Shown in pieces: positions 12,424 through 32,605 of a stretch of 33,225 nucleotides of DNA. The translations under genes were made by a program, and so were the position numbers. Location: NCBI GenBank assembly GCA_030603485.1, contig JAUVXS010000002.1:1-33225 (forward strand), given 5' to 3'. Under the pieces are notes generated by a model. The model ran no database searches. It was not told where the DNA came from and saw only the letters and a program-made list of their open reading frames with translations. The stretch comes from Dehalococcoidia bacterium. GTDB lineage: Bacteria; Chloroflexota; Dehalococcoidia; GIF9; AB-539-J10. Positions within the stretch are counted from its first letter, which is position 1, and the number at the start of each line of letters is the position of its first letter.

Positions 12424-12506
12424 GCCGAGGTGGCGGAATGGTAGACGCGGCGGACTTAAAATCCGCTTCCTGCAAGGGAGTGTGGGTTCGAGTCCCTCCC
12501 TCGGCA
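12424..12506 (+). tRNA. tRNA-Leu (anticodon TAA), type II with a long variable arm
   Basis: Acceptor GCCGAGG/CCTCGGC, anticodon stem GCGGA/TCCGC with loop CTTAAAA, a long variable arm, T-loop TTCGAGT (one U-U mismatch in the T-stem), discriminator A. Starts 1 nt after tRNA-Trp. Confidence 0.88.
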
Positions 12507-13321
12507 GTAGCCAAAGTGGTAAGCAACTGGTAGGCAATTTCCTCAAGTCCAGACGGGAAGGTCTAAGTCCTCAGTCAATAGAGTTCTACGAAGGTTATCT
12601 GAGGCTTGCCAATACCGTCATAGGATTCCACATCACAGGTCAGGATATATCCCAATTCCTCAGCAATCTTGGCTGTAGCAATGGTGGCAAACATGCTTAC
12701 TACAGAGCCCTTAGAGCTTTCTACAACTGGTTATATTCCCCGAAAAGTGGCCATGGTCTAAATCCTCAGGATAATCCTATGCTGTTGGTGGAAAGTCCAA
12801 AGGTAGAAAGGAAGATACTACCGAGCCTGACAACGGAGCAGTTGGACTATCTCATAGACCAGACTGAATGTATCCGGGATAAGGCTATCATATCCTTGTT
12901 TGCTGACAGTGGGCTACGCTTATCGGAACTAGCCAATATTGACCAGGCTAACATTGACTGGCAACATCGGTTAATCAAGGTCGTTTGTAAAGGGAATAAG
13001 GAAGGACTTGCTCCCTTCGGTCAAAGGACTGAGAAGCTACTCAAGGAATGGCTATCACAACATCGTGCTGGTGGTAAGCTATGGGACATAAGAGAACGGG
13101 GAATAGCCTGGATGCTTTGGAGACTGGAAGCTAAGACAGGTCTTCCTTGTAATGCTCACACTTTCCGAAGGACATTTGCCAGCATCCTATCCAAGAGAGG
13201 GGTAGATTCCCTCCACATTATGAGGCTTGGCAGGTGGCAATCCCTGGCGATGGTAGACAGATACACAAGGTCAGTCCAGTTTGAGGATAGCCTTAAGCTC
13301 TATACCTCCATAATGGAGTAG
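12482..13321 (+). CDS. Tyrosine-type site-specific integrase
   Basis: SAM-like N-domain (SPQSIEFYEGYL...YYRALRAFYNWL). Catalytic boxes DSGLRLSEL (R), HTFRRTFAS (HxxR), LGRWQSLAMVDRYT (W...Y). The only canonical start before the N-domain is GTG 12482, inside the tRNA-Leu T-arm. Confidence 0.85.
   Translation: MGSSPSLGSSQSGKQLVGNFLKSRREGLSPQSIEFYEGYLRLANTVIGFHITGQDISQFLSNLGCSNGGKHAYYRALRAFYNWLYSPKSGHGLNPQDNPMLLVESPKVERKILPSLTTEQLDYLIDQTECIRDKAIISLFADSGLRLSELANIDQANIDWQHRLIKVVCKGNKEGLAPFGQRTEKLLKEWLSQHRAGGKLWDIRERGIAWMLWRLEAKTGLPCNAHTFRRTFASILSKRGVDSLHIMRLGRWQSLAMVDRYTRSVQFEDSLKLYTSIME
12518..12538 (+). promoter_or_regulatory. Paired GGTA(A/G)GCA motif next to attL (candidate arm-type recombinase site)
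   Basis: ggtaagcaactggtaggcaat matches 17557-17577 (ggtaagcagatggtaagcaat) at 18 of 21 positions. A third pair is at 13765-13794. Confidence 0.35.
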
Positions 13322-13322
13322 C

Positions 13323-13637
13323 TCAGGACATACCGAGACAAATTCTGAGTTTCAAATTCGAACCTGTTTCGCCCAAGACAGAGATAGACTCCCGCGCTAC
13401 ATCACATTCACCTTCAGGGTAAAGGATTTCGCCTCTCCTCAGGGCAAACTCCGCGCGACGGTCGGCTGGTCCAGGCGAGATTCCGAAGCTTGAGCGAAAA
13501 ACCTTCTCTCCTCGCAATGACAGGGGGGCGTCTTCCGTAATGACCAGTGGGAGTGTCATTGCCAGCAAAGCGCTGTAATCCATCGGCACGGTCGCTAGTT
13601 GCTCTTCGTCGCTGGTAGAATCATCTGTATTGTTCAT
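13323..13637 (-). CDS. Hypothetical protein (doubtful)
   Basis: 104-aa ORF convergent with the integrase. No SD and no recognisable motif. Confidence 0.25.
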   Translation of the reverse strand: MNNTDDSTSDEEQLATVPMDYSALLAMTLPLVITEDAPLSLRGEKVFRSSFGISPGPADRRAEFALRRGEILYPEGECDVARESISVLGETGSNLKLRICLGMS

Positions 13638-14017
13638 AGTACTAATGGACTATTACCTTTCTCCTAGTACTAGTCGCAAAAAAGGGGAAAATCCCTCGCT
13701 CCTCCAGTACTCCTGATTGACTTTCTTCCGAGGGGAGTAGCAATCCGTTGTGGATAGCTAAATTGGTAAGCACTTACCTTTGTGCTGGTAAGCAAAGGGT
13801 GGAGTCTCCCTACTTATCTCTTCTGAAAGGATAGGTATCTTCATCTCTGAGGACTACACCTACGAGCTAGCTATATGTGATACCCCCTACCCTTGCCCTC
13901 TCTCCTTCTCACCTACGCTCACCGAGCCAATATCTGCTCGTAGAGAAAATCCAGTCAGGCTTAGAATATTCGGGATTACATAATCAACTCAGGCTACGAG
14001 TGTGGTAAAATAGGAAT

Positions 14018-14557
14018 ATGGAAGAAACCTATTATATTTGGCAGATTATTCTCGTTGGGATTCTTGTTGCAGTCACTATATACTATGCTATTCAAACACA
14101 CCGTCAGGCTAACCTCCTCAAGAGACAGATGGATGAAACCCGCTATATCCACAATATAGCGACTCTGAAGCAATCTATAGAACAGATATACGAATGGGCA
14201 CAATACGGAGTTAATGAATACTGTATTCCTGGGCTTGGGCGTTTTGATAGAGGCAACTATCCTGTAAGTACAAAAGCTACAACACACTTGGTATTATCAG
14301 GTGCTAGGGCACTGGGCAATGCTTCGTATATCGGAGGCGATTTGTGGGATAATGTAAAGCAGGCATATGATTCTATGGAGACAGTAGTTGCATCTCTGGG
14401 GGTGGATACTACACTTGAACTTCTATCAGACTCAGAATATGAACGCCATATTGAGGATTTCCAGAAATCTTTACAAGCTCTTTTAGACAAATTCTCAGAT
14501 GTGATGGTGGCATGCCGTAATTTAATGGTTGGGTTAGACATGGAAACATACGGATAG
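14018..14557 (+). CDS. Hypothetical protein, N-terminal TM anchor plus helical domain
   Basis: 179-aa ORF. TM helix IWQIILVGILVAVTIYYAI. AT-rich island cargo. Confidence 0.5.
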   Translation: MEETYYIWQIILVGILVAVTIYYAIQTHRQANLLKRQMDETRYIHNIATLKQSIEQIYEWAQYGVNEYCIPGLGRFDRGNYPVSTKATTHLVLSGARALGNASYIGGDLWDNVKQAYDSMETVVASLGVDTTLELLSDSEYERHIEDFQKSLQALLDKFSDVMVACRNLMVGLDMETYG

Positions 14558-14752
14558 TTTTCTGATGCATTAGAATCCCTTTGTTTACAACCTTCCTCTT
14601 GCCCTCTCCAAATCCACCTAGCTTAGCTAGTCATCGGCTAATCATGACTTCATCCAAGATTAGTGGCTCTGAAGGACTACCAGAATCAAGCCAACTAAGT
14701 CTGTTGTGCCGTCTTACCTGTTCTTCTGTAATTTCCTTTAAATGTCCGTAGT

Positions 14753-15409
14753 CTAGCCCCGATAAGTACATATCATGAATAATTTATCTTTATCTTTGTA
14801 GAACATGAGCCATGTGATTGAGTTAGTAGGGTCATCCTTCATTGTGTTTCTCCAATATGTAACTACACCATTGCCTAAGTCCACCCTTTTTGCACCCTTT
14901 ATGGCTTCGTCAAGCGGAGGAGAAAGGAAACGCTCAGGTTTACCATTTGCGTAGTCCACGAGTATTTGTACATTTTCTGGCAATATAGCACCTGTGTCCA
15001 AGTAGTAAAGACCTTTCGCAATTTTACGCAAGACACGATTGATGACCTCTCCATCCATTTCTAATACCAGCGTACGACCAAGCAATGCACCAGACTCTGA
15101 TATTACTCTTGCTTTTCTTATGTATGACCTTATGGTTGGCTTCAACAATGGTCTACGACCTTTCAGGTCTGGGCGAATCCTCTCGTTCCAAATGCGGAAG
15201 CCAGGCTCATTTTCATAAGCCATTCCCGAAGCTAAAAAAACTCTGAATTTTTCCTCATCACTGGACAAAGCATTATTACATTCAGTACACGCAGGCAATG
15301 TTCTAAGATTGGCTGGCAAAGGTTTATTAAACAAGCTACTAGGGAAAAGATGGTCTCTAGTATCAGCTAGTTTAGAACCACAGAGATAGCACTTTTTGCT
15401 AATAGACAA
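14753..15409 (-). CDS. HNH-nuclease-like protein with an unknown C-terminal domain
   Basis: N-terminal CYLCG...TRDHLFP...LPACTECNN gives two CxxC pairs plus the His and Asn of a beta-beta-alpha-Me finger. TTG start with a GAAGGTGA SD. About 150 aa of unassigned C-terminus. Confidence 0.6.
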   Translation of the reverse strand: MSISKKCYLCGSKLADTRDHLFPSSLFNKPLPANLRTLPACTECNNALSSDEEKFRVFLASGMAYENEPGFRIWNERIRPDLKGRRPLLKPTIRSYIRKARVISESGALLGRTLVLEMDGEVINRVLRKIAKGLYYLDTGAILPENVQILVDYANGKPERFLSPPLDEAIKGAKRVDLGNGVVTYWRNTMKDDPTNSITWLMFYKDKDKLFMICTYRG

Positions 15410-15451
15410 GTTGTCACCTTCTCTTCAACAGCCTGTAAATCCATCTATCTA

Positions 15452-15649
15452 CTACCCATCAGGCAAAGTATACATGGTAATCGTAATGGTAGCACTTGCC
15501 GAGGAATTGCCTGTCTTGCTTACGCTACCAGTCACCTCATTATCAGGGATGCTGGTATCAGCAATAGCAATGCGAGTATCATTTAAGCCAAGTAGGACTA
15601 ACCCTACCAGAAGGATTGCAAGGGTGACTACAGTGACCAGGCTCTTCAC
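15452..15649 (-). CDS. Small hypothetical secreted or membrane peptide (doubtful)
   Basis: 65-aa ORF with a GTG start and signal-like LVTVVTLAILLVGLVLLGL. Lies 42 nt upstream of the HNH-like gene. Weak SD. Confidence 0.25.
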   Translation of the reverse strand: MKSLVTVVTLAILLVGLVLLGLNDTRIAIADTSIPDNEVTGSVSKTGNSSASATITITMYTLPDG

Positions 15650-15810
15650 TTCAACCCACTCTTAAATCAATTATAGGCTTGAATAGCTACAGAAGCAATA
15701 CCCTTGAAGGGTAAATGTGACCAAGTGCAAGGGAGCACCGCACTACGCTAAACCAGAACATGAGGAACGCTAGTGTTCAGCCTACGATGTTATATAATAA
15801 GGGAAGTAAA

Positions 15811-16614
15811 ATGACTTCACAAAGACCCAAGATTATCCATCACCAGAACAATTTAAGTGGGTATGTCGGTAACTGGCGTCTCTTAATGAATCAAATTTTG
15901 AAGGTGCAACCTCCTATTGATATTCCACGAGAACTAGTTTCTCTGGGTGACAATACCCATGATTTATCTGTAATGCTTTCATATCTGGACGCTAACCTGA
16001 CAATACTTGAGGAAACACCAGATGTAGCTGGTCAGCAAATTAACTATTTAGCTTATGCTGAGGCAAGGAGTTTCTTGAAGGCGTGTTATATGTTAGTCCG
16101 CATATTGTTTGATGATGTATCAGGGGTAATTAAGTATTTTTACGACAAGAAAGAACCAAATTCGGGAGTAACTAAAAGTTTTGATAAACTTCTTAGTAGA
16201 GCTAAGAATGGGAAATTGCCTGAAGACCTTTCTACACTACTCAAACAAACCATTGTAAATTTTCCTGAAATGAGAAACAGGAGAGTTGATTTGGAGCATT
16301 ATTATGAATCTCTTCTGATTTCTTTTAGGCACGATGAAGAAGGTAAAACCATTCTTGGACATTTCAGCACGAAGCAACGCCCTGCCAAAGAGTATGAAGA
16401 TATTAGGCAATACTTTGGTTCTGTTCTTTGCGAGTATCAGACTTTAATTGACAGTTTGCTTGACCATTTTGATGCCAAGTTCGTAGATTGGTACAGATTC
16501 AAACCGCACAGAGATTTAAATATTCTCCAGGGATACGCAGGCATTATGTTATGGTGGGCGTGCAAGTATGGTAACTACAGGCACAAAGACTTAGTAGTAA
16601 TTGAGAGTGATTAA
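15811..16614 (+). CDS. Hypothetical soluble protein (ORFan)
   Basis: Start placed at ATG 15811 (AAGGGAAG SD 5 nt upstream); the ORF is open from 15760. No motif recognised. Confidence 0.55.
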   Translation: MTSQRPKIIHHQNNLSGYVGNWRLLMNQILKVQPPIDIPRELVSLGDNTHDLSVMLSYLDANLTILEETPDVAGQQINYLAYAEARSFLKACYMLVRILFDDVSGVIKYFYDKKEPNSGVTKSFDKLLSRAKNGKLPEDLSTLLKQTIVNFPEMRNRRVDLEHYYESLLISFRHDEEGKTILGHFSTKQRPAKEYEDIRQYFGSVLCEYQTLIDSLLDHFDAKFVDWYRFKPHRDLNILQGYAGIMLWWACKYGNYRHKDLVVIESD

Positions 16615-16711
16615 TACTGACACTAGACAACAATTCTGTATGCTCTATACTACTGCGAGGGATAGAATCATAATATATCGAGAGAAACGGAAAGGAGGTT
16701 AAGCAAGGAAG

Positions 16712-17275
16712 ATGTCGAATAGTTTACAACCAGAGCAAATTACGGACGAGCAGCGACGAGTATGGTTAACCGAATACCAAGTTTGTCAACAACATAATGA
16801 CGCTATTGGGTCACAAGCCTGGGTGAGCACAACTATATTTCTAACGATAAATGTGGCTTTGTTGGGTGGTCTCGTCTATACACTCATGACAAACTTAGGA
16901 AGCAGCAGTTCAGAATTACGACTCATAATATTAATCAGCTTCATAGCACTAAGCGTAGGAATACTCTTGATTTTAAAGAAATGGGTGAATTGGTTAAAGA
17001 GAATGAGATTTACGGCATCAATTAATTATGAAAGGATGGGTCAAATAGAGCGATTCCTGGGAATGAGGAAACATACAATGTGCTACGAGCTTGACGAAGA
17101 ATATCGCCAAGTGAAGACATCAGCCGCAAGAAAAGAGTTTAATAAAAGGAATGAACCCTTCAAATACTTCAAGGCAAGTGGATTTGATGGACTAATGTTC
17201 ATAGCTAAAACATTAATGGGACTATGGTCTTTATCAATCTTACTATTGTTGATTGCACTAACTATTTCACCCTAG
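16712..17275 (+). CDS. Hypothetical 3-TM membrane protein
   Basis: Strong GGAAAGGAGG SD. TM helices WVSTTIFLTINVALLGGLVYTL, LRLIILISFIALSVGILLIL and LMGLWSLSILLLLIALTI. Lies 97 nt after the preceding ORF on the same strand. Confidence 0.6.
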   Translation: MSNSLQPEQITDEQRRVWLTEYQVCQQHNDAIGSQAWVSTTIFLTINVALLGGLVYTLMTNLGSSSSELRLIILISFIALSVGILLILKKWVNWLKRMRFTASINYERMGQIERFLGMRKHTMCYELDEEYRQVKTSAARKEFNKRNEPFKYFKASGFDGLMFIAKTLMGLWSLSILLLLIALTISP

Positions 17276-17342
17276 CGAGCTTGGGGGGGAAGGTTAAGGA
17301 AGGGGGGCGTAGCCCCCATCCCAGGAGTTGGGTTACTTCTCC

Positions 17343-17483
17343 CTAAGATACTGCCCCTGTCCAAATTTCTTCAATTACTCCCTCTTTACACTTGGGGCAG
17401 GTTTCTCCGACCATCTCAAGTTCCGTTTTGACATTCTTTGACTTGCACTCGGGACATTCTCTCGTGTCTTTCTTCCGCTTCAA
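17343..17483 (-). CDS. Possible small zinc-ribbon protein (below the ORF-track size cut-off)
   Basis: My own translation: LKRKKDTRECPECKSKNVKTELEMVGETCPKCKEGVIEEIWTGAVS*. Only TTG starts are available (17483, 17495 or 17501), and the SD is weak. Confidence 0.3.
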   Translation of the reverse strand: MKRKKDTRECPECKSKNVKTELEMVGETCPKCKEGVIEEIWTGAVS

Positions 17484-17556
17484 CCTAACATACAAAGTCA
17501 ACCTATCACTACACGGGAAGAGACCACCTAGTGATAGGGTTGCTCAAGCTCTAAAC

Positions 17557-17577
17557 GGTAAGCAGATGGTAAGCAAT
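17557..17577 (+). promoter_or_regulatory. Paired GGTAAGCA motif next to attR (candidate arm-type site)
   Basis: See 12518-12538. Confidence 0.35.
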
Positions 17578-17592
17578 ATTGAAGCTAATAAG

Positions 17593-17649
17593 GGACTTAA
17601 AATCCGCTTCCTGCAAGGGAGTGTGGGTTCGAGTCCCTCCCTCGGCAGT
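17593..17649 (+). repeat. attR: 57-bp copy of the tRNA-Leu 3' part (anticodon stem to 2 nt past the discriminator)
   Basis: Identical base for base to 12452-12508. Confidence 0.92.
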
Positions 17650-17716
17650 GAACTAATCACATGGCCATCCGAAATGTTACCCGTGTTTATCACTTAAAGA
17701 CAGTACTTTTATCTCA

Positions 17717-17745
17717 TTGACTTCTGCGATATTGCGAATTATACT
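17717..17745 (+). promoter_or_regulatory. Sigma-70-like promoter for the 463-aa gene
   Basis: TTGACT, a 17-nt spacer, then TATACT. GGAGG SD at about 17762 and ATG at 17774. Confidence 0.45.
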
Positions 17746-17773
17746 CTTTTGATTACGTCAACGGAGGCAAAGC

Positions 17774-19165
17774 ATGGCAGGAGTCGATAAGGCGCTAGAA
17801 GCAACAGAAACCCCACAAGTCATAAGCGGCATGGAGAAAGATGGAATGGTGATGAAATTGGTGGCTGAAATGCTGGAGGGGAAGATTATTGAACTCAGAC
17901 CCCAGCTTGATTTCACTACTGAGCTGGGCTTCACATATCCAGCCGCTGAGCAAACACTAAAGGTCACAAGTAAGGAAGCAGCATTAATTCTGGAATCCCT
18001 GGCTGACAAAGGTATATTAAGGAAGAACTTTTTTGACAGGCTCCTTCGTTGTCCCCGCTGCCAGTCAATAAATATAAGACCAACTATCCACTGCCCTAAA
18101 TGCGGCTCGGGAGATATCGTCCAGGGCAGAGTCCTCGAGCACTTGGCCTGCAAGTATGGGGGCCTTGAAGGTGAATTTCTAGTCAGGGGTAGATATGTAT
18201 GCCCCAGGTGTAAAGTGGAACTGCGGACTCTAGGCGTCGACTACCAGAGCCAGGGAGTGCTGCGCAAGTGTCGTGATTGTGGCGAGATATCCAGTGCGCC
18301 GCTGATAAAATGGCGCTGTCTGAAATGTTCCACGCTTACCGATGTGGGTGGAGTTGGCGAAGTGACTATCTACTCGTACAGCCTTGATGAGGCGAAGAGA
18401 AATTGGCTGGAATTTGAAATTCAGCCTAAAGTGCAGTTCCTTGAATTCTTGAGGCAGCACGGGTATGAAGTAACGCAAAATGCCAGAATGAAGGGAAAGT
18501 CGGGGGCAGAACATTGCATAGATATACTGGCTACCAAGGATGACGGCGTCGTTACCCATAGTATCGCTATCGGGATTGAGATTGCCAGGGATAAGGTAGG
18601 ATTGGACAGGATATTGGACTTTGATGTCAAAGCCTATGATAGCGGCATCCACGATAAGGTAATGATTATCAGCCCCGGGTTGGGCGAAGAGGCGGAGAAA
18701 TTTGCCAGCTACCAGAGAATAAAGGTGCTTGAACCCAAGGACCTGGAGATAGTGCTGACTGGTGGTCCCCAGCCCGGCCGGGAAATAATAAAGGAGCCCT
18801 TTGAATTTAAGTCCAAATCACAGCTTATAGAATACCTGGAGAAACAGGGCTACACGGTAAAGAAAAATGCTAAAGTCGAAGGCCGGTCTGGCGCTGCCCA
18901 TAACATAGACATACTGGCTACCAGGGATGAGGGCATCATTACTCATCGTATTGCTATTGGCATCAAGGTGGGTAAGAAGCCGATGGGGCTGGATAAGGTA
19001 TTTGACTTCGACGACAAGGCTTATGATGCAGGTATTATGGACAAGGTCCTTATTGCCGTTCCTGGACTCACTAGGGAGGCCAGGCAGTTTGCGAAGCGTC
19101 AGGGAATAAGGGTCTTTGAGGCCGGGCAAATGAAGCCATCTGGAGAGGGGAACCCTGAATCCTGA
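17774..19165 (+). CDS. Multi-zinc-ribbon protein with two tandem PD-(D/E)xK (Mrr/NucS/YraN-like) nuclease-fold domains
   Basis: 463 aa. A wHTH-like segment (KEAALILESLADKGIL). Five CxxC pairs between aa 93 and 185. Two repeats of about 100 aa (aa 219-321 and 348-450) are about 54% identical, each with G.SGA.H.IDILA...IAIGI(E/K). Confidence 0.6.
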   Translation: MAGVDKALEATETPQVISGMEKDGMVMKLVAEMLEGKIIELRPQLDFTTELGFTYPAAEQTLKVTSKEAALILESLADKGILRKNFFDRLLRCPRCQSINIRPTIHCPKCGSGDIVQGRVLEHLACKYGGLEGEFLVRGRYVCPRCKVELRTLGVDYQSQGVLRKCRDCGEISSAPLIKWRCLKCSTLTDVGGVGEVTIYSYSLDEAKRNWLEFEIQPKVQFLEFLRQHGYEVTQNARMKGKSGAEHCIDILATKDDGVVTHSIAIGIEIARDKVGLDRILDFDVKAYDSGIHDKVMIISPGLGEEAEKFASYQRIKVLEPKDLEIVLTGGPQPGREIIKEPFEFKSKSQLIEYLEKQGYTVKKNAKVEGRSGAAHNIDILATRDEGIITHRIAIGIKVGKKPMGLDKVFDFDDKAYDAGIMDKVLIAVPGLTREARQFAKRQGIRVFEAGQMKPSGEGNPES

Positions 19166-20564: not shown

Positions 20565-21701
20565 CTAACTCAGCCCCAGTTCAATGGCTATCACTTCTCT
20601 GTGCAAGTCAGTGTCGCCGGCAGCAAACTCTGCCGCCTTGACACGGCGGTAATAGAGCCCAATATCATGGTCCATGGTATATCCGATAGCCCCATGAGCA
20701 GCAATGGCTTCAATGCAAATTCGCTGGTAAGCTTCATTGGCTTTAGCCTTGGCTGCGGAAATCTGCCAGGGCGATGGTGAACCGACGCTTATCCCCCACG
20801 CTGCCTGATAAAGCAAATACTGAACTGCCTCTACATCAATCAACATGCCAGCCAGTTTGTGCTGTATCGCTTGAAAAGAGCCGATTGGCCGGTCAAACTG
20901 AATTCGTTCCTTGGCATAGCTACTGGTCATGTCCAAAACAGCCTGACACGCTCCGCATATCTCAGCGCACTTCAGCACAGCAGCCCGTTGTAATATAAAG
21001 TCCACTACGTCCCAGCCGTTGCCTATCTTGCCCAGGATATTGTCTTTTGGCACCGCTACTCTATCAAAGCTGACTTTGAATTGCCTGTCACCGCCTATAG
21101 TCGGGATCGCCTCCATCTTCACATTTGGCTCCCTGGCATCCACTATAAACAGTGTGATTCCATCCTCGGTTCTTTTCCCCTTTCCGGTCCTGCCGGCAAC
21201 CAGGATATAATCAGCCACATGGGCATCGGCAACAAAAAGCTTACATCCATGGAGAACATAATTGGTCTCCTCCGATACAGCACGAAGTTTTACCTCAGAA
21301 GCTTTATATCTGCCTGACGACTCGGCTAAAGCGAAAGTCCAGATAGCCTCGCCTCTAGCTATTTGTGGCAGAAACTTAGTTTTTTGCTCACTGCTTCCAT
21401 ATTCAAATAGAGGCAGAGCACAAAGGGCGATAGTGGAGAAGAAAGGACCGGGCAGGATATTTCTTCCCATCTCCTCCATCAAGACAACCAGGTCCATAAA
21501 GCTGCCAGCCATGCCGCCATATTCTTCTGGAAAGATGAGTCCTATCCACCCCAGTTCTGCCATAGCGCGCCATAATTGCGGGTCATAGCCTTTACCATCT
21601 TTGTCCATCTCCCTGACTTTAGCTTTGGGACATTCCTTTGCCAGAAAATCTCTGGCCAAAATCCGCAGCATCTCTTGCTCTTCTGTTAAACTGAAATCCA
21701 T
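20565..21701 (-). CDS. Acyl-CoA dehydrogenase family protein (possibly a non-catalytic partner subunit)
   Basis: Full-length ACAD fold. Ala replaces the MCAD-type Glu (EFAAGDTDL versus IYEGT). Gln replaces the IVD-type Glu (FILQR). Confidence 0.85.
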   Translation of the reverse strand: MDFSLTEEQEMLRILARDFLAKECPKAKVREMDKDGKGYDPQLWRAMAELGWIGLIFPEEYGGMAGSFMDLVVLMEEMGRNILPGPFFSTIALCALPLFEYGSSEQKTKFLPQIARGEAIWTFALAESSGRYKASEVKLRAVSEETNYVLHGCKLFVADAHVADYILVAGRTGKGKRTEDGITLFIVDAREPNVKMEAIPTIGGDRQFKVSFDRVAVPKDNILGKIGNGWDVVDFILQRAAVLKCAEICGACQAVLDMTSSYAKERIQFDRPIGSFQAIQHKLAGMLIDVEAVQYLLYQAAWGISVGSPSPWQISAAKAKANEAYQRICIEAIAAHGAIGYTMDHDIGLYYRRVKAAEFAAGDTDLHREVIAIELGLS

Positions 21702-21813: not shown

Positions 21814-23016
21814 TCAATATGATTTGGGTAATCCCAGTCCAAATTGCGCAATTATACTCTTTTCGATTTCAGCAGTGCCAGCCGCGATTGCCATACCGGG
21901 AAAACCCAGATACGCACCTTGTATTGTGCCGTTGAGTTTGGACCATTCGGAATCCGGGTCAACCTGAGAATATATGCCTAAAAGCTCCGCCCCGGTAATA
22001 GCCACCCGTCTCATTACCTCGTCACTCATTATCTTGTTCCTTGAGGACTCATAGACAGGAATTTGACCTTGACTTATCCGCCAGGCGATCTGGAAGGCGA
22101 ACATCCTCAGTACTTCCAGGTCAATAGCCAGATCAGATAGCTTGGCACGAATCACAGGATTCTGCGACAGCGGCTTTCCTTCATGCTCGGTTTGAGCAGC
22201 GTACTTAACTAGCTCTTCTAATGCCCTCTTAAAACCACCGTAGGTGATAGGCGCTAAGCTGCGCCGCTCAAAGGCCAGTGCCTGCATAAGGTGGTACCAA
22301 CCTTTGTTTTCCTCCCCAACCAAGTTGGAAGCCGGCACTCTGACATTATCGAAAAACATTTCATTGAAGTGATGCCGCCCGTAATAGTTTAAAATAGGAT
22401 TGACTGTAACACCCGGGCTCTTCATGTCCACAATAAAGATACTGATTCCCTGGTGTTTCTTAGCGGCATTGGGGTCTGTTCTGGCGGCCAGCCAGCACCA
22501 TCTTGCCTGGTGAGCAGCACTTGTCCACACCTTTTGCCCATTTATAATATAGGCATCTCCATCCCTCACCGCCCGCGTCTGAAGATTGGCAAAGTCTGAG
22601 CCAGCATTTGGTTCACTGTAACCCGTGCACCAGACACCATCTTTTTCACCCGAGGCAATTAACGGCAAATATTTTTTTCTTTGCTCTTCGGTACCGAACA
22701 TCATCAGGCAGGGTCCTACCCATTGTGTGCCGCTTATACCCATCCCTGCCCCCGGTATACCCCAGTAGGATATCTCCATTTCGTATACTGTTTGTTCCCA
22801 GAGAGAAGCACCACGTCCGCCATATTCCTCCGGCCAGCTCATAACGAGCCAACCCCTCTGGGCTAGCTTTTTGGATATGGATATTTCGAACTCAAAATCT
22901 CTGCATTCTCCATCAATTGGAGTGCTGCGCCTCCAGTCTGGAGGTAATTCGACTTCGGCAAACCTGCGAATTTCTTCCTTCAGAGCTAGTTCTTTTTCAC
23001 CCAGTCTAAAGTCCAT
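21814..23016 (-). CDS. Acyl-CoA dehydrogenase family protein
   Basis: ACAD fold (YSEPNAGSD, GQKVWTS). The C-terminal IAAGTAEI lacks the MCAD-type Glu, but AFERRSL keeps a Glu at the IVD-type position. Confidence 0.85.
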   Translation of the reverse strand: MDFRLGEKELALKEEIRRFAEVELPPDWRRSTPIDGECRDFEFEISISKKLAQRGWLVMSWPEEYGGRGASLWEQTVYEMEISYWGIPGAGMGISGTQWVGPCLMMFGTEEQRKKYLPLIASGEKDGVWCTGYSEPNAGSDFANLQTRAVRDGDAYIINGQKVWTSAAHQARWCWLAARTDPNAAKKHQGISIFIVDMKSPGVTVNPILNYYGRHHFNEMFFDNVRVPASNLVGEENKGWYHLMQALAFERRSLAPITYGGFKRALEELVKYAAQTEHEGKPLSQNPVIRAKLSDLAIDLEVLRMFAFQIAWRISQGQIPVYESSRNKIMSDEVMRRVAITGAELLGIYSQVDPDSEWSKLNGTIQGAYLGFPGMAIAAGTAEIEKSIIAQFGLGLPKSY

Positions 23017-23120: not shown

Positions 23121-24017
23121 TTACTTTGGTTGGGGTGGGTCCGGATTTACCAATTCCCAGGTCATCGTTATTGGCATGAAGTTGAATAGCTCATCAATTG
23201 TCCATCCGCCAGCTTTAACCAGTTGTTTCTCCATTACCGGCTCTGAATAGAGCCCGATTCGGCCTGTTTGTACATAAAATGCCCGCCCATTGACATTAGC
23301 AGCGTCATCGGAGGCGAGCCATACTACCATAGGAGCAATATCCTCAGGCTTCATCTCTTCAAGCCTGGCTATATCCTCTGTCCGAGCTTTCATCATCTCC
23401 TCACTGAGGGTAAGCCGAGTCCCGGCAGTAGGCCGAATACAATTACACGTTACACCGTACCGGCCCATGTCCCTCGCCACTTTTCTTGTCAATCCAACGA
23501 TTCCCTCTTTCGCTGCACCGTAGTTAGCCTGCCCGTAAGTAGTGGCATATAGACCTGCTATAGATGAGGTATTTATTATTCGTCCATACCTCTGCTGACG
23601 GAAGAAGGGACTCACCGCTCTGATGGTATAGAAATGTCCAAAGAGATGCACTTTGAGCACCAAATCCCAGTCTTCCTCGCTCATGTTGAACACCATTCTA
23701 TCACGCAGAATGCCAGCATTGTTGACCAGTATGTCAACCTTATTAAAGTTGTCCATGGCAGTCTTTACAATGTTCTCGGCACCTTGTAGGGTGGTCACCG
23801 AGTCGTGGTTGGCAACTGCCTGTCCACCGAGTTTCTTAATCTCTGCTACCACCTCGCCCGCTGGTGAAGTTGATGCTCCAGTGCCATCTCTAGCGCCTCC
23901 AAGGTCGTTCACGACGACTTTAGCACCCTCCGATGCTAAAGCCAGAGCTTCTCCTCGTCCAATACCTCGTCCCGCACCGGTAACTATAGCTACCTTGCCT
24001 TGTAGTCTATCGCCCAT
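23121..24017 (-). CDS. SDR oxidoreductase, MFE-2-type (3R)-hydroxyacyl-CoA dehydrogenase-like
   Basis: GKVAIVTGAGRGIGRGEALALASEGAKVVVNDLGG ... VNNAGILRD ... YGAAK closely parallels the N-terminal dehydrogenase domain of peroxisomal multifunctional enzyme 2. Confidence 0.8.
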   Translation of the reverse strand: MGDRLQGKVAIVTGAGRGIGRGEALALASEGAKVVVNDLGGARDGTGASTSPAGEVVAEIKKLGGQAVANHDSVTTLQGAENIVKTAMDNFNKVDILVNNAGILRDRMVFNMSEEDWDLVLKVHLFGHFYTIRAVSPFFRQQRYGRIINTSSIAGLYATTYGQANYGAAKEGIVGLTRKVARDMGRYGVTCNCIRPTAGTRLTLSEEMMKARTEDIARLEEMKPEDIAPMVVWLASDDAANVNGRAFYVQTGRIGLYSEPVMEKQLVKAGGWTIDELFNFMPITMTWELVNPDPPQPK

Positions 24018-24113: not shown

Positions 24114-24584
24114 TTATTTCGCGCTCCGTATGGGTAAGGCAACCAGAGCTGAGCCAGGTGTCGTCTTTTCTCCGTTTCCATTCTCCACCCAAATCTCGCA
24201 CTCAACAAGGTGCTCACCGCCCTCATCATATTTCTTGGTCACCTTGCCTTTACACCAACAGGTTTCGCCATCATGCGGCTTTTCCATCGTCTTCATTTTC
24301 CGGGGATAATCCATGCCGCGGTATTGGCAGGACAATTTCTTGAGTTTCCCCTTCTCTCCAATCCAGTCAGTCATCAATTGTCCTAGCCAGGCACGCTTAA
24401 GCGCTCCGTGTACAATGGGGGCACCTACGCCCATAGCTTTAGCGAAATCATCTTCATAATGCAAAGGGTTAAAATCTCCCGATGCTCCCGCCCATTGGAC
24501 TAACATGCGACTTGTAGCAATTTTAGCCAATGGTGTTATCTCACTATCTACTCTAACATCCTCATAATAAACTTGTTTAGCCAT
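24114..24584 (-). CDS. MaoC-family (R)-specific enoyl-CoA hydratase, catalytic hot-dog subunit
   Basis: Hydratase-2 motif ASGDFNPLHYEDDFA ... HGAL. Start moved to ATG 24584 (GGAGGAGAG SD directly upstream) from the TTG at 24611. Confidence 0.85.
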   Translation of the reverse strand: MAKQVYYEDVRVDSEITPLAKIATSRMLVQWAGASGDFNPLHYEDDFAKAMGVGAPIVHGALKRAWLGQLMTDWIGEKGKLKKLSCQYRGMDYPRKMKTMEKPHDGETCWCKGKVTKKYDEGGEHLVECEIWVENGNGEKTTPGSALVALPIRSAK

Positions 24585-24617
24585 CTCTCCTCCAAAAAAT
24601 AAAGTAGCCAAAACAGG

Positions 24618-25091
24618 TTAGAACTGAATCAATGTCGACCGGCTTTTGAGCGCCACATTGCCAGTTTGGTTTACAAAAGTAATCTCCACTGTGGTGAACA
24701 TAGTCTTGCCCAGTCTGGTTTCGCGCTCGGTTATGCTGGAAATTCTAGTTGTGGCAGTTAATACATCGCCAGCGCCAACAGGGTCAATAAATTCGAATTC
24801 AACACCTCCATCGAGAACCCTTGGAGGCGCTCCAGCTTTTGCTAGAGTCTCAAACAGTTTGTCCGTAGGGCGGTCAGCCTTGACTGGCCAACCCGTGAAA
24901 CCTGGAGGAGCCAATAACCGACCATGCCTGGTTTTACTGGCGTAATCCGGGTCATTGTACAGGGGGTTCGGGTCACCTATAGCCTGTGCATATCTCTGGA
25001 TTGCTCCTTCTTCGACCTTGAAGATGATAGGCCCTGAGGACACGCCTATCAACTTCCGCAGTTCATCGGTAATCAAACTACCTTCCGGCAT
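24618..25091 (-). CDS. MaoC_dehydrat_N-type hot-dog protein (non-catalytic hydratase partner)
   Basis: EEGAIQRYAQAIGDPNPLYND motif. 157 aa. Directly upstream of the catalytic MaoC gene. GGAGG SD. Confidence 0.8.
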   Translation of the reverse strand: MPEGSLITDELRKLIGVSSGPIIFKVEEGAIQRYAQAIGDPNPLYNDPDYASKTRHGRLLAPPGFTGWPVKADRPTDKLFETLAKAGAPPRVLDGGVEFEFIDPVGAGDVLTATTRISSITERETRLGKTMFTTVEITFVNQTGNVALKSRSTLIQF

Positions 25092-25117: not shown

Positions 25118-26320
25118 CTACAATCCTATAATAGCAACACTAACGATGTTCATGGCTGGAAAACCGCCCATATTGTGAGTTAGACCCAGCCTGGGGTTCT
25201 TGATTTGCCGTTCTGGCAGCTGGGCTTTGCCCTGCAATTGTTTATACATTTCATACAGCATCCTGAGGCCAGAGGCACCAATAGGATGCCCGAAGCACTT
25301 CAATCCACCATCGGGCTGGATAGGCTGCGGTCCATCAAGATTGAAACGTCCAGCCTCGATGTCTTCCTTGACTTTCCCCCTGGGGCTGAATTGCAGATCT
25401 TCCATAGTCACCGCCTCAGTTATGGAGAAGCAATCGTGTACCTCAGCCATGCTTATCTCTTCACGTGGGTTCTTTATCCCCGCCTCCTTATAAGCCAGCA
25501 TACCAGCACGGTAACCGGTCTCAACATGAGCTCCATCCCATTTGGTATACATCAATTCCTCGCCTGAACTTAAAGCAATTTGTAGTGTCTTAACATATAC
25601 GGGATCTGGCCGAAATTTCTTGGCCATGTCAGCCCTGGTTACGATTGCAGCCGCTGCGCCATCACTGACTCCGCAGCAATCAAAAAGCCCCAGAGGCCAG
25701 GCTATTATAGGTGCATTTATTATCTGTTCCTCAGTTACTTCGCGGCGCAGATGCGCCTTCGGGTTCCGGGCTCCATTATAGTGGCTTTTGGCTGACACTT
25801 TAGCCAGCATTCTCTTGCCCTCCTCGGGACTGAGGCCATATACAGAAAAGTATCTGGTTGCCAGCATGGCAAAGGCTCCAGGAGCGGTCAATTTAGGCAT
25901 AATCAGTGCATTTTTTGTTCCCATAAGACCAGGATTACCTGGGAGACCACCGTATCCCGTATCTTTGAGCTTTTCTACACCCAGAGCCAGAGCGATATCA
26001 TAAGCTCCTGAAGCTACACCGTAACATGCACCCCTGAAGGCTTCTGTGGCAGTAGCACAAAAATTTTCCGTCCTGGTGACCGGAATAAAGGGCAACTTCA
26101 AGGCCAAAGCCAAAGATGTAGCCCCTTTTCCTACGCTTTGTTCCTCAAAATGCACGCCGAACCAGGCCGCATTGATGTCCTTTTTTTCTATACCCGCGTC
26201 CTCGATGCATTCCTTATAAGCATCTACCATAAGGTCATCTGCACTCTTATCCCATAGCTCTCCAAACTTAGTGCAACCCATCCCTATAATAGCAACCTTG
26301 TCTTTAATACCTTCTGCCAT
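25118..26320 (-). CDS. SCP-x/archaeal-type thiolase (lipid-transfer-protein-like)
   Basis: VAIIGMG, nucleophile context NFCATATEAF, VHDCFSITE, GHPIGASGLRM, THNMGG. Start moved to ATG 26320 (GGAGGGAG SD). Confidence 0.85.
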   Translation of the reverse strand: MAEGIKDKVAIIGMGCTKFGELWDKSADDLMVDAYKECIEDAGIEKKDINAAWFGVHFEEQSVGKGATSLALALKLPFIPVTRTENFCATATEAFRGACYGVASGAYDIALALGVEKLKDTGYGGLPGNPGLMGTKNALIMPKLTAPGAFAMLATRYFSVYGLSPEEGKRMLAKVSAKSHYNGARNPKAHLRREVTEEQIINAPIIAWPLGLFDCCGVSDGAAAAIVTRADMAKKFRPDPVYVKTLQIALSSGEELMYTKWDGAHVETGYRAGMLAYKEAGIKNPREEISMAEVHDCFSITEAVTMEDLQFSPRGKVKEDIEAGRFNLDGPQPIQPDGGLKCFGHPIGASGLRMLYEMYKQLQGKAQLPERQIKNPRLGLTHNMGGFPAMNIVSVAIIGL

Positions 26321-26359
26321 TTTTGCTCCCTCCATAGATTTTATTAATTCCCACTGTGG

Positions 26360-27802
26360 TCAAGCACGTATTGGCATTGCCTTCCATGAATAACCGTGAA
26401 CACCACCTGACTCATCAACATATCGTCTGCGGAAGGTCATCTCTACCGGCATGCCTACTTTAACGGAATCCAGGTCACAATCAACAAAATCAAACCAAAA
26501 CCTGCCACCACCATCAAAATCCACCAGGCCATATACTGAAGGTGGGTCGATACTGGCAGCTAGATTATCGCCGGTATAAGTAAATACGACGCCTTTCTTA
26601 TCCGAAAAGCGATAATCTTCCATCTGGTCAATGGCTCCGCAATCAGGATTTACACATACTCTTTGATATGGATATTGTGGCGTGCCGCATTTTTTGCACT
26701 TCGATCCACAAAGAGCCAAAACTACTTTCCGCTCCCTGAACAACGCCGACATCGGTGTGCGAATGCTTATCTCGCCACGCATACCTAAGTCCATAGGTGC
26801 TAAATTTCTGAAGGCAAGGTATTTTTCATAGCTGGTAAGCTCCTTTTTCGAGTTCAAGTGTTTCTTGACCGCCCTCTTGCCCTTTATATTCTCTATTCTT
26901 TCAGTAACCTGGAAAAACAGTGCGTCGCTACCGTTCCCAAAGCTGGCGACCAATATTTTGTCGCCTGGCTTTGCGTCTTCCAGTGCCGCTACCAACATCA
27001 TTAGAGGCGAAGCTGACCCAGTGTCACCGACTGTGCTAAGCAATGTATCCTGAAGCTGACCAGGGTCAGCACCCAATTGCTTGGCTATAGCTCCATGCCC
27101 TCGTGCATACAGTCCGGGATAAGCTATCTTGGTAAAGTCCTTGATGTTCAGATTGTATTTCTTCAATAGTCCAGAAATTACCTCCGGAATAAATTGACTA
27201 TAGCCAGAATCGCGAATGAATCTATCTTCCCAGGCATGCTCAAATTTTTCTCCACTTGCTCTCCATCGGTCGGGGAAATCGTAGGAAACAGAATACGAAC
27301 CTTCAAAAGTAGCAATCACATCATCACTGCCAACAAGAAGTGACGCAGCGCCATCACCATAGAGAGACTCTTGAGGACTGCCCGGTTTGCTCAAACGGCA
27401 ATCAGAAGCACAGACGAGAATATTACTTGACATCTCCCCCCTTACAGTATCAAATGCGGAAAGCAGTGCAGTAGTCCCTGACTTCGTAGAGCCTATGAAA
27501 TCAGCAGTCCGCATATTTGCCTGTAAATCAAGGGCAGTAGCTATCAGAGCTGAATTTTGCCTTACCATATAAGGCTGACTGGTAGTGGCAAGATACAGAC
27601 CATCAACTATCTCCCGTTTCATACCACTTAAGCAATCAATTCCTGCGGCTACTGCCATGCTGAGAGCATCCTCATCGTGATTAGCGACTGCATTTTCACC
27701 GGGCGGTGGGAACGTCCCCAGGAACCCAACAGCCGTGAAGATAGTGTTGTGATTCATTCGATACCGTGGGATATAAGCTCCGTAAGACTTGATGCCGACC
27801 AT
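26360..27802 (-). CDS. HMG-CoA-synthase-like domain fused to a DUF35 Zn-ribbon/OB-fold domain
   Basis: N-terminal MVGIKSYGAYIPRYR matches the HMGCS/KAS-III fold. C-terminal CGSKCKKCG...CVNPDCG zinc ribbon plus an OB segment (GVVFTYT...VGMPVEMTF). GGAGG SD. Confidence 0.75.
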   Translation of the reverse strand: MVGIKSYGAYIPRYRMNHNTIFTAVGFLGTFPPPGENAVANHDEDALSMAVAAGIDCLSGMKREIVDGLYLATTSQPYMVRQNSALIATALDLQANMRTADFIGSTKSGTTALLSAFDTVRGEMSSNILVCASDCRLSKPGSPQESLYGDGAASLLVGSDDVIATFEGSYSVSYDFPDRWRASGEKFEHAWEDRFIRDSGYSQFIPEVISGLLKKYNLNIKDFTKIAYPGLYARGHGAIAKQLGADPGQLQDTLLSTVGDTGSASPLMMLVAALEDAKPGDKILVASFGNGSDALFFQVTERIENIKGKRAVKKHLNSKKELTSYEKYLAFRNLAPMDLGMRGEISIRTPMSALFRERKVVLALCGSKCKKCGTPQYPYQRVCVNPDCGAIDQMEDYRFSDKKGVVFTYTGDNLAASIDPPSVYGLVDFDGGGRFWFDFVDCDLDSVKVGMPVEMTFRRRYVDESGGVHGYSWKAMPIRA

Positions 27803-30300: not shown

Positions 30301-31230
30301 TTATGCTGGTCTCTTAGTGAAAGGCCAGAGTTCCCTCCACTCTCGTTTTTCCCACACCACCAGAAGCTGGCTGGAGACGCAGATAGAGCTGTAGGTGCCG
30401 ATGATGACGCCGAGGAGCAATACCAGGACGAAATAGTGTATGGTGGCTCCACCGAAAAGGAACAGGGCCAGGAGCACAAAAAAGGTGGTCAGGGCAGTAT
30501 TTAGACATCTCCCCAGCGTTTCTACGAGGCTATCATTGACCGTCTTGGCGAAATCGGGTCCAGTTTGTCTTGATACATTTTCCCGAATGCGGTCAAAGAC
30601 GACCACAGTGTTATTGATGCTGTAGCCGACAACGGCAAGCAGCCCGGTGATAAACAGGGCATCAATCTCCACCTCGGCAAGCCAGCCCAGGAGGGAGAAA
30701 ATGCCCGTTATTATGAACACATCGTGGATGAGAGCAATGACGGCGCAGGTGCCCCAGCGAAAGGGACTGGGCATGCGACGAAAAGCCCAGACAATGTAAA
30801 ACATCATAGCCACAGCAGCTATTATTACGGCGATGACAGCATTGCGCGCTGTTTTCGCCGCCACTGTTTCCGAGACTAAATAGTAATCGGTTATTTCAAC
30901 CTGAGAATCCAATTCTGTCCCGAGTTTCCCTGCCAGCTCTCTTGCATTAGTTGAGGTTATTTCCCTGGTGTGGATGATGAAATTACCCTCACCGGCGTTT
31001 TGAATAGTTGCCTTATCATATCCCAGCTTAGCCATCTCTTCCCGCAACTGGCTTTGCTCGACCGCCGGGCTAAACTGAAGAATCATAGATGTGCCACCGG
31101 TGAAATCCGTTCCAAGCCGCAGTGGAGATTTGACCTGTATTTGAGAGATGACCAGGGCAACTATTGCTATAACTACAAGTATTCCTGAAATAAGGAAAAA
31201 CCACCGCTTCTTACCGACAAAGTCTATCAT
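30301..31230 (-). CDS. secF: Protein translocase subunit SecF
   Basis: LGTDFTGGT motif, a six-TM layout, and position immediately downstream of secD. Confidence 0.9.
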   Translation of the reverse strand: MIDFVGKKRWFFLISGILVVIAIVALVISQIQVKSPLRLGTDFTGGTSMILQFSPAVEQSQLREEMAKLGYDKATIQNAGEGNFIIHTREITSTNARELAGKLGTELDSQVEITDYYLVSETVAAKTARNAVIAVIIAAVAMMFYIVWAFRRMPSPFRWGTCAVIALIHDVFIITGIFSLLGWLAEVEIDALFITGLLAVVGYSINNTVVVFDRIRENVSRQTGPDFAKTVNDSLVETLGRCLNTALTTFFVLLALFLFGGATIHYFVLVLLLGVIIGTYSSICVSSQLLVVWEKREWRELWPFTKRPA

Positions 31231-31240
31231 TTCAGGTTTC

Positions 31241-32605
31241 TCACTTCTTTGGGACTGACGTTACTCCATATGCTGCCAGATTTTTAACCACGCGGCTGCC
31301 TATAATCAGGCGGAGGAAGGTTCTGGTGACCACAATGGCTGTGAACATGGATAAAGCCACACCAATAAGCAGGGTCTGGGCAAAGTCTTTGACCATAAGA
31401 GCGCCAAACCCGCGGCCAAGCCAGATAAGTATGATGCAGGCGATAAAGGTGGTGATGTTGCTATCTCTGATAGCCGTCCAGGCGCGGTTGAACCCGGTCT
31501 CAGTGGCAGCACCTAAGCTGCGACCCCCCCGTAGTTCCTCCTTGGTGCGCTCAAAGATAAGGACGTTGGCATCTACAGCCATGCCCAGCGAGAGGATAAA
31601 TCCGGCCACGCCAGGCAAAGTCAGGGTTATGGGCGCTACAGGCCAGAGCTTAAAAATGGATAAAAGCATCACGCCATAAATCCCCAAGCTGAGGCAAGCT
31701 ACCAGGCCAAGGAGACGGTAGTAAACAAGCATAAATATCACCAGTAGCACTATCCCAATCACTGCTGCCATTATGCTCTTCTCGATAGAATCCTGCCCTA
31801 AGGTAGCATTTACTGTCCTTTCGTAGAGCGGAACACTAGGTTCAAATATTCCAGCTACCCACCTCCCCAGTGGAACGGGGATACGCCCGGCGTTAAGCAA
31901 CCGGGATAATTCCTGGGCGTCAGCAAGGCTCAGCCCTTCAATTTGTCCCTTGTCTTCTATCACCGCTTGTACCACCGGAGCGATGATACGACCATCTTCA
32001 CCCCGGAGCGGCTCATCGCTAAGGTAAATAGCTAATTGTTTTCCGAGAAGGCGGGTTGTAATCTGTTTGGAAAGCTCCTGTCCCTCTTCATCCCATTCAA
32101 ATTTTAATAACGGTCTGCCCAACTGGCCTACAGTAGCGTAAGTGTTTTCCTTAAAATATCTACTGGTAAGGGTTAATTCTTCGCCATTCACCATTCCTGT
32201 AGCAGGAGTCCAATTTCCTCCGGCATCCTGTTCACGGAATTCGAGCACGGTGAAGAGCCCAATCGTCTCCTTGGCTTTCTCAATGTCAGCAATGCCTGGT
32301 AGTTGGATGACAATGTTATATTCACCCTCGTATTTCTGTAGTTGGACAACGGACTCGGTTATGCCCAGAGCATCGATACGCCTTTCTATAACCCCCTTCA
32401 CACCCCTCATAGTATCATCCTCTTTGCCAGGCTCGATGTCGCTGACATCGGCCTGATAAACCAGATAGCTGCCGCCGGCAAGGTCAAGCCCCAGCCTTAG
32501 TCCTTCCCTGCCAAAAACATTCCTACCCAGCGGGGCTATGGACCATAAGGCGAAGCCGAACAGAACAAGGATGAAAATAAGTAAATAAACGTTTCCCCTT
32601 CTCAA
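31241..32605 (-). CDS. secD: Protein translocase subunit SecD
   Basis: LGLDLAGGSYLVY motif and a C-terminal RND-like TM bundle. TTG start located 1 nt after the stop of the upstream gene. Confidence 0.9.
   Translation of the reverse strand: MRRGNVYLLIFILVLFGFALWSIAPLGRNVFGREGLRLGLDLAGGSYLVYQADVSDIEPGKEDDTMRGVKGVIERRIDALGITESVVQLQKYEGEYNIVIQLPGIADIEKAKETIGLFTVLEFREQDAGGNWTPATGMVNGEELTLTSRYFKENTYATVGQLGRPLLKFEWDEEGQELSKQITTRLLGKQLAIYLSDEPLRGEDGRIIAPVVQAVIEDKGQIEGLSLADAQELSRLLNAGRIPVPLGRWVAGIFEPSVPLYERTVNATLGQDSIEKSIMAAVIGIVLLVIFMLVYYRLLGLVACLSLGIYGVMLLSIFKLWPVAPITLTLPGVAGFILSLGMAVDANVLIFERTKEELRGGRSLGAATETGFNRAWTAIRDSNITTFIACIILIWLGRGFGALMVKDFAQTLLIGVALSMFTAIVVTRTFLRLIIGSRVVKNLAAYGVTSVPKK

Follow-up and report, generated by a model that had tools for sequence, protein, structure and literature searches.

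In a 33,225-nt window from a Dehalococcoidia bacterium (contig JAUVXS010000002.1; all positions given here are those of the whole window), the minus strand carries a gene whose product joins a domain resembling hydroxymethylglutaryl-CoA synthase (HMGS) to a C-terminal DUF35 module, followed after 24–39 nt, depending on the thiolase start, by a gene for an SCP-x-type thiolase (Table 1). The fused gene is a single open reading frame (ORF) without internal stops, and its ATG is preceded by a strong AGGAGG ribosome-binding site. All four catalytic residues of HMGS are replaced in the fused protein and the catalytic set of the neighboring thiolase is intact; by analogy with homologous complexes of solved structure, the fused protein is most probably a non-catalytic partner of that thiolase.

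Table 1. Coordinates of the fused gene, its domains, the partner thiolase and the neighboring genes in the window.
Feature	Position	Strand	Basis
Predicted pseudo-HMGS-DUF35 fusion gene, 480 aa	26360..27802	-	ORF; NF003274; Pfam PF08541, PF12172, PF01796; AlphaFold2 model
HMGS-like (PhlA-like) domain, residues 1–334	26801..27802	-	Alignments to 6esq_I, 5m3k_A, 9skh_A; Foldseek
DUF35 rubredoxin-like zinc ribbon, residues 365–390 (Cys369, Cys372, Cys383, Cys388)	26633..26710	-	PF12172
DUF35 OB-fold domain, residues 401–458	26429..26602	-	PF01796; 6esq_E; PhlB 5m3k_B
SCP-x-type thiolase, intact catalytic set	25118..26335, start probably 26320	-	NF004810; 6esq_A; BbsB 7pxp_C; motifs
MaoC-family hydratase subunit, HadA/FAS1_DH-like	24618..25091	-	PF13452 8.4e-25; NF040624 HadA 3.1e-10
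MaoC-family hydratase subunit, HadB-like (R-specific)	24114..24611	-	PF01575 2.9e-12; HadB 4rlj_B 1.7e-12
Short-chain dehydrogenase/reductase (SDR), MFE-2 (3R)-hydroxyacyl-CoA dehydrogenase type	23121..24017	-	PF00106 1.3e-44; 2et6_A 2.8e-101
Acyl-CoA dehydrogenase (ACAD), pair member 1	21814..23016	-	Pfam ACAD N, M, C; Tcur3483 (6wy9_A) 6e-62; 4x28_A 5.4e-59
ACAD, pair member 2	20565..21701	-	Pfam ACAD N, M, C domains
3-Hydroxyacyl-CoA dehydrogenase (3HCDH), divergent, 256 aa	28168..28938	+	PF02737 1.5e-51; PF00725 positions 1–47 of 97

Both halves of the fusion are recognizable by profile, by comparison with solved structures and by structure prediction. The NCBIfam archaeal HMGS model NF003274 is covered end to end by residues 1–334 (E = 7.7e-67), and the sequence homology of this domain to HMGS is far beyond what chance would be expected to produce. 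Its score of 225.8 bits nevertheless lies below the curated cutoff of 244, and the scores for TIGR00748 (148.3 against 353.35) and TIGR01835 (63.2 against 360.35) fall far below theirs, so that the curated models do not call the protein an HMGS. The Pfam profiles PF01154 and PF08540, which the initial annotation of this DNA had proposed for the comparison, gave no match at E ≤ 0.01, the archaeal-type NCBIfam models being informative instead; the sole Pfam domain reported for the HMGS-like part is the generic ACP_syn_III_C. Among solved structures the N-terminal part is closest to PhlA (9skh_A, 3.9e-39; 5m3k_A, 1.1e-36), followed by 6esq_I (9.1e-34), the HMGS of the Methanothermococcus thermolithotrophicus thiolase/HMGS/DUF35 complex. 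After a linker of about 30 residues, the C-terminal part shows the DUF35 architecture of a four-Cys zinc ribbon followed by an OB fold, with matches to PF12172 (E = 2.6e-4; 21.1 bits, just under the cutoff of 23.2) and PF01796 (E = 7.1e-12); it aligns over residues 356–478 with 6esq_E, the DUF35 subunit of the archaeal complex (7.7e-15), and further with PhlB (5m3k_B, 9.9e-5) and, weakly, with the BbsA-related model NF053627 (9.1e-4). The AlphaFold2 model of the whole protein, built on a 34-sequence alignment, reaches a pLDDT of 92.9 and a pTM of 0.94, and its HMGS-like domain has the thiolase-superfamily fold of HMGS and ketoacyl-ACP synthase III (KAS III), the top Foldseek matches by target-normalized TM-score being 6esq_J/I (0.90; E = 1.2e-31 to 6esq_J), PhlA (5mg5_A, 0.88) and MucA (9vbo_B, 0.86).

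To map the catalytic tetrad, we used a HMMER alignment to 6esq_I and the residue numbers Glu82, Cys114, His238 and Asn270 from PMC12960953. The four positions are occupied in the window protein by Thr74 (in ATTSQPY), Thr106 (GSTKSGT), Pro229 (AYPG) and Asp260 (VGDTGS), so that none of the E-C-H-N residues of a functional HMGS is present. The initial annotation had proposed the loss of a Glu/Cys/His triad from motif strings that are all found in the protein (ATTSQPY at residue 72, GSTKSGT at 104, IAYPG at 226 and NILVCASDC at 127). Its Cys-to-Thr and Glu-to-Thr replacements agree with the alignment, in which no Cys, Glu or His falls on a catalytic position; the loss of the histidine also stands, but the tyrosine assigned in its place is one residue off, since Tyr228 pairs with Phe237 and His238 with Pro229. 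The asparagine, which lay beyond that triad, is replaced as well.

The loss of the catalytic residues extends well beyond the window protein. When 1.84 billion cluster representatives (clustering at 50%) were searched exhaustively, 3323 proteins matched at E ≤ 1e-3, of which 1905 reached E ≤ 1e-10 and 644 reached E ≤ 1e-30. For residue conservation we retained, among the 150 best listed, the 132 representatives of 440–520 aa (4 longer and 14 shorter ones were dropped), which are mutually at most 50% identical, and aligned them with the query using MAFFT. In these full-length fused proteins neither the Glu nor the Cys column contains a single catalytic residue, Thr occupying the former in 114 of 132 and Leu the latter in 79; His is found in one representative and Asn in 43. 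The 78 near-full-length copies from named genome records give a similar picture (Glu 0, Cys 0, His 0, Asn 13). The zinc-ribbon residues Cys369, Cys372, Cys383 and Cys388, by comparison, are each kept in 125–130 of the 132 representatives. On these alignments the HMGS-like domain is a predicted pseudoenzyme, and its lack of the catalytic residues is family-wide.

The thiolase encoded downstream retains its catalytic motifs. It scores 625.7 bits with NF004810 (cutoff 403), and its best match among solved structures is the thiolase of the archaeal complex (6esq_A, 3.1e-58), ahead of BbsB (7pxp_C, 1.5e-36) and PhlC (1.5e-22). Alignment to the 6esq_A motifs identifies Cys93, His300-Asp-Cys-Phe303 (HDCF) and Gly349-His350-Pro351 (GHP) as the catalytic residues, and the nucleophile context NFCATAT, already singled out in the initial annotation, is indeed present at residue 91. 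The Cys, HDCF and GHP motifs are invariant in all 20 aligned partner thiolases from related loci. As listed, the thiolase ORF begins with MEGAK, and an AAGGAG ribosome-binding site precedes its second ATG; together with stops that precede the conserved start, MAEGI, of the thiolases at two related loci (L061 and L055), this suggests that translation probably begins at the second Met. A suspected in-frame stop inside the L061 and L055 thiolases was discarded, as it lies upstream of the real start.

The pairing of the two genes is itself conserved. Relatives of the fused gene are encoded by 543 of 602 candidate stretches, from which 80 loci were kept, 79 of them matching at least half of the query. 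Of the 57 loci that extend for at least 3300 nt downstream, 56 have a co-oriented thiolase gene (at least 50% identity) after the fused gene. In the 62 paired loci with both genes nearly complete, and with the window proteins as reference, mean identity is 66.1% for the thiolase and 51.3% for the fused protein, and the thiolase is the more conserved of the two in every pair, as expected for a catalytic subunit next to a scaffold.

Known assemblies offer a framework for these observations. The nearest relatives of known structure belong to dodecameric thiolase/HMGS/DUF35 complexes, whose two thiolase-fold proteins are bridged by DUF35 (PMC6392133, PMC12960953). All three modules of the window pair have homologs in the archaeal complex (6ESQ), whose HMGS differs in being active, with its tetrad in place, and pulls the thiolase condensation towards mevalonate (PMC12960953). 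In PhlACB (PpATase/CsATase; 5M3K/5MG5, 9SKH) and MucABC (SmaATase; 9VBO), too, DUF35 bridges an HMGS fold devoid of catalytic residues and a thiolase-fold subunit that performs the catalysis. PhlACB was solved in 2018 as Phl(A2C2)2B4, with catalysis by PhlC residues alone and a PhlA that lacks both the HMGS Cys (Gly115) and Glu (Cys83) (PMC6392133). These systems differ from the window pair in consisting of three separate chains, where HMGS-like domain and DUF35 form one chain here, in having a thiolase without HDxF and with a remodeled acceptor pocket that transfers acyl groups to aromatic or tetramic acceptors, where the window thiolase keeps HDCF, and in their location in polyketide synthase/nonribosomal peptide synthetase (PKS/NRPS) clusters.

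Closest in organization is the Pseudomonas fluorescens complex PfACAT/HMGS-DUF35, reported in January 2026 (Nat Commun; PMC12960953) and compared here by its published description: it, too, is an HMGS-DUF35 fusion without the E-C-H-N tetrad, accompanied by a thiolase with Cys, HDxF and GHx and by no PKS/NRPS neighbors. The P. fluorescens complex makes neither HMG-CoA nor acetoacetyl-CoA and cleaves acetoacetyl-CoA in vitro, mutation of the HDxF His leaves it nearly inactive, an archaeal HMGS given four PhlA-type substitutions forms no HMG-CoA, and both PhlACB and MucABC still have an interfacial chamber (PMC12960953). Apart from the host, the difference lies in the pathway: the paper defines none, its authors viewing the complex as a possible evolutionary intermediate that has yet to be recruited, whereas the window pair sits inside what is predicted to be a complete R-specific beta-oxidation operon. 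The same study mined 1,030 bacterial HMGS-ACAT-DUF35 loci, 1,001 of them without secondary-metabolism neighbors, and this list may already hold relatives of the window gene. The window gene is a further member of this published fused-complex type, of which both the principle and the fused form are known. The initial annotation's proposal of a dead HMGS fold that, with DUF35, would organize a thiolase complex thus agrees with the reading we favor, given the lost tetrad, the intact thiolase and the homologous complexes of solved structure; the idea itself is not new, having been published in 2018 and 2026 (PMC6392133, PMC12960953).

A second group of relatives links DUF35 to catabolism. In the BbsAB benzoylsuccinyl-CoA thiolase (7PXP) and in the ChsH2(DUF35)-Ltp2 and Shy-Sal steroid aldolases, DUF35 likewise partners an SCP-x-type thiolase-fold enzyme within a catabolic, beta-oxidation-like pathway; these assemblies differ in that they are not known to include an HMGS-like subunit and in that their DUF35 is free-standing or fused to a MaoC hydratase (PMC12329534, PMC11321319). 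At two related loci (L016:7033-8635 and L017:7229-8905), the stretch directly upstream of the fused gene encodes another SCP-x-type thiolase and, after it, a DUF35 protein that stands alone (BbsAB-like), so that both kinds of DUF35-thiolase module sit side by side.

The operon in the window contains no PKS/NRPS gene, and the neighbors of the pair are the MaoC hydratases, the SDR, the ACADs and the 3HCDH. Beyond its best match, the SDR resembles 17beta-HSD4 (1zbq, 1gz6) and Drosophila MFE-2 (3oml), and the first ACAD is closest to Tcur3483 (6wy9) and 4x28, which we take to be alpha2beta2 ACADs of steroid side-chain degradation; this suggests a heteromeric ACAD of steroid side-chain type for the adjacent pair. 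Peroxisomes use an MFE-2/SCPx enzyme set for beta-oxidation, and both this set and the mycobacterial ChsE/ChsH steroid side-chain system are linked to branched or bulky substrates. The window operon shares with the two systems an MFE-2-type dehydrogenase, a MaoC hydratase, an SCP-x-type thiolase and an ACAD, as well as SCP2 in fused relatives, and differs from both in its predicted pseudo-HMGS subunit. With its two ACADs, its MaoC R-hydratase of two subunits and its MFE-2-type dehydrogenase, the operon suggests that the thiolase acts last in an R-specific beta-oxidation whose substrate would be a bulky or branched acyl-CoA. Whether the divergent 3HCDH belongs to the same pathway is uncertain; at 256 aa, and with PF00725 matched in only about half of the profile, it may be truncated.

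Related loci show a comparable setting. We scanned 94 ORFs surrounding the pair at 12 taxonomically diverse loci, picked from 119 ORFs; in most loci the fused ORF itself was set aside, as were some ORFs that are short or antisense, and three SDR/fused coordinates of L062 were added. Eleven of the 12 loci carry ACADs, electron-transfer flavoprotein (ETF), acyl-CoA ligases, family-III CoA-transferases, MaoC/MFE-2 hydratases, SDR(-SCP2), enoyl-CoA hydratase/3HCDH or acyl-CoA mutases, and in the twelfth, L031, an ETF subunit is the sole such neighbor. TRAP/MFS transporters also lie near the loci of relatives, along with ETF, acyl-CoA ligases and CoA-transferases. The literature searched (Dehalococcoidia, syntrophic and anaerobic contexts) contained nothing relevant on a published beta-oxidation role for the fused HMGS-DUF35 family; in PMC12960953, "degradation" is absent and "oxidation" is confined to the introduction, methods and reference list.

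Taken as a whole, we consider it likely that the predicted pseudo-HMGS-DUF35 protein binds and supports the adjacent thiolase, which would perform thiolysis in R-specific beta-oxidation. By analogy with the archaeal, PhlACB and MucABC complexes, the fused protein would bind the SCP-x-type thiolase encoded directly downstream, keep it soluble and properly assembled, and probably lend it part of an interfacial CoA-binding chamber. The chemistry would be carried out wholly by the thiolase, through Cys93, His300 of HDCF and His350 of GHP, and would consist of the thiolytic cleavage of a 3-ketoacyl-CoA as the final step in the R-specific beta-oxidation of bulky or branched acyl-CoA. The lost residues, the fold, the fusion, the conserved gene pairing and the gene context are observed, and we infer from them and from the homologous complexes that a complex forms, that the reaction runs towards thiolysis and what class of substrate is cleaved.

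Several observations weigh against this model. Some of the replacement residues around the old catalytic site show strong conservation, namely the Thr at the Glu position, Ser105 (112 of 132) and Arg/Lys107 (125 of 132), and Asn is retained at its tetrad position in the 43 representatives noted above; this could mean that the domain still binds a ligand or has taken on a new role, and is more than a scaffold. The basis of the link to beta-oxidation is gene neighborhood alone, and when the window proteins were used in tblastn searches of the 57 loci, the SDR was found in 26, the ACADs in 25 and 16, MaoC in 8–9 and the 3HCDH in 3. One of the 57 loci, L060, has no thiolase within 4.2 kb downstream. 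Conservation around the old active site, the many paralogs per genome (10 matches at most, in a genome of 1.6 Mb) and the interfacial chamber retained in PhlACB and MucABC (PMC12960953) would together suit a domain that has gained a new function, either catalytic or in binding a ligand or substrate so as to set the range of the thiolase. The former catalytic columns, however, are variable, with Leu, Gln, Thr, Met or Pro at the Cys position, Pro, Tyr, Ala or Ser at the His position and Asn, Asp, His or Tyr at the Asn position, which argues against a shared new catalytic site, and the fused protein evolves faster than the thiolase in all 62 paired loci; we regard such a gain as very unlikely.

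It is hardly probable at all that the HMGS-like domain still condenses, as an HMGS or KAS III type enzyme, through other residues: its fold is fully preserved and the query has cysteines at 57, 131 and 135, but Cys57 is kept in 84 of 132 representatives, Cys135 in 42 and Cys131 in 10, no Cys column in the domain is conserved across the 132, the nucleophile position is most often Leu, and neither the PhlA-type archaeal mutant nor the P. fluorescens complex forms HMG-CoA (PMC12960953). The cysteines of NILVCASDC, considered as an alternative nucleophile, were rejected on the same counts. A Friedel-Crafts C-acyltransferase of secondary metabolism, CoA-independent or acetyl-CoA-dependent in the manner of PhlACB and MucABC, would fit the ranking of PhlA as best solved match and its lack of the same tetrad (PMC6392133, PMC12960953); it is made highly improbable by the absence of HDxF from PhlC and MucB (PMC12960953), set against the HDCF of the window thiolase, which is invariant in the 20 aligned partner thiolases, by the far closer match of this thiolase to the archaeal enzyme than to PhlC, and by an operon with beta-oxidation enzymes and no PKS/NRPS gene. 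Somewhat better placed, although still unlikely, is a biosynthetic pair serving Claisen condensation, reverse beta-oxidation or the supply of storage-polymer precursors, given that thiolase reactions are reversible, that the ancestral archaeal complex is biosynthetic (PMC6392133, PMC12960953) and that the NCBIfam label of the thiolase is acetyl-CoA acetyltransferase. Because no exergonic HMGS step follows, the unfavorable condensation would not be pulled forward; the P. fluorescens complex cleaved acetoacetyl-CoA and formed none from acetyl-CoA (PMC12960953); and the two ACADs of the operon, together with the ETF, acyl-CoA ligases, CoA-transferases and TRAP/MFS transporters of relatives, are typical of catabolism. 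The non-catalytic partner of a degradative thiolase remains the reading we favor.

In some relatives the fusion extends further. One protein of 911 aa (P0123) combines the fused protein with an SDR and SCP2 and represents a six-member cluster that includes one NCBI Deltaproteobacteria record; a 906-aa form of the same composition is encoded at L041:9001-11721, an 800-aa protein (P0160) adds an SDR, and a 722-aa protein (P0125) adds two SCP2 domains. The added SDR and SCP2 domains recall MFE-2/SCPx. P0201 (723 aa), with ATP-grasp and molybdopterin-binding domains, is possibly the product of a chimeric gene call.

In the 90%-clustered database, where 3884 of 7999 scored candidates reach E ≤ 1e-10, the best 120 matches are 77–96% identical to the window protein and nearly all 480 aa long, the named ones being Dehalococcoidia or Chloroflexi; the closest named record (L002) is a Dehalococcoidia metagenome-assembled genome (MAG) at 96% identity. 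Named loci come from Dehalococcoidia, other Chloroflexota, Desulfobacterales, Syntrophaceae/Smithella, Syntrophomonas, Bacillota, Actinomycetota, Dethiosulfatibacter and one Hadesarchaea MAG, with two copies in Desulfosarcina alkanivorans PL12 (Desulfobacterales). A sample of 151 genomes of the window's own class (G000 included) contains 61 with a match at E ≤ 1e-40, and the high-quality genomes among them give 39 of 108, and copy numbers are highest in G145 (10 matches, about 1.6 Mb) and G067 (9, about 1.2 Mb). The fused gene was noted to be strongly multiplied in the small Dehalococcoidia genomes G145, G067, G110, G118 and G122, and copies stand in tandem in places (G067:C20, G145:C1, L065/L072). 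The assembly of the window itself (1.36 Mb in 118 contigs, 57.7% complete) contains one copy.

Elsewhere in the window, positions 12482-19165 hold a tyrosine integrase (12482-13321), an HNH-domain ORF (14753-15409) and a protein with TackOD1 and Mrr_cat restriction-endonuclease domains (17774-19165); this region has a lower GC content (0.41-0.42) and may be an integrated mobile or defense island. At 30301-32605 there are two large membrane-protein ORFs (309 and 454 aa) that look SecF- and SecD-like by eye.

More tentatively, and with a probability that we put well short of even, the pair could be the standard thiolase module of an R-specific, MFE-2/steroid-side-chain-like beta-oxidation in anaerobes, namely in Dehalococcoidia, Desulfobacterota, Syntrophia, Bacillota and even Hadesarchaea. 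In that case the shared CoA/substrate chamber would come from the dead HMGS domain, which would thereby set the bulky or branched 3-ketoacyl-CoA accepted by each paralog, and the up to 9–10 matches per 1.2–1.6-Mb genome would amount to a substrate-specific repertoire for recalcitrant organic matter, in contrast to the view of an evolutionary intermediate without a pathway.

For the favored model of a non-catalytic partner supporting a degradative thiolase, the practical consequence concerns annotation: the database label "hydroxymethylglutaryl-CoA synthase" carried by this family is misleading, since it implies a mevalonate pathway where the metabolism of Dehalococcoidia and sulfate reducers is reconstructed. 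In biological terms, the pair would represent a natural case in which a condensing enzyme is retained as a pseudoenzyme that holds and shapes a partner thiolase. To the published examples the present analysis adds a very large family that is uniformly without the catalytic Glu and Cys, its near-constant pairing with an intact thiolase, and its occurrence in what appear to be catabolic beta-oxidation operons of uncultured anaerobes.

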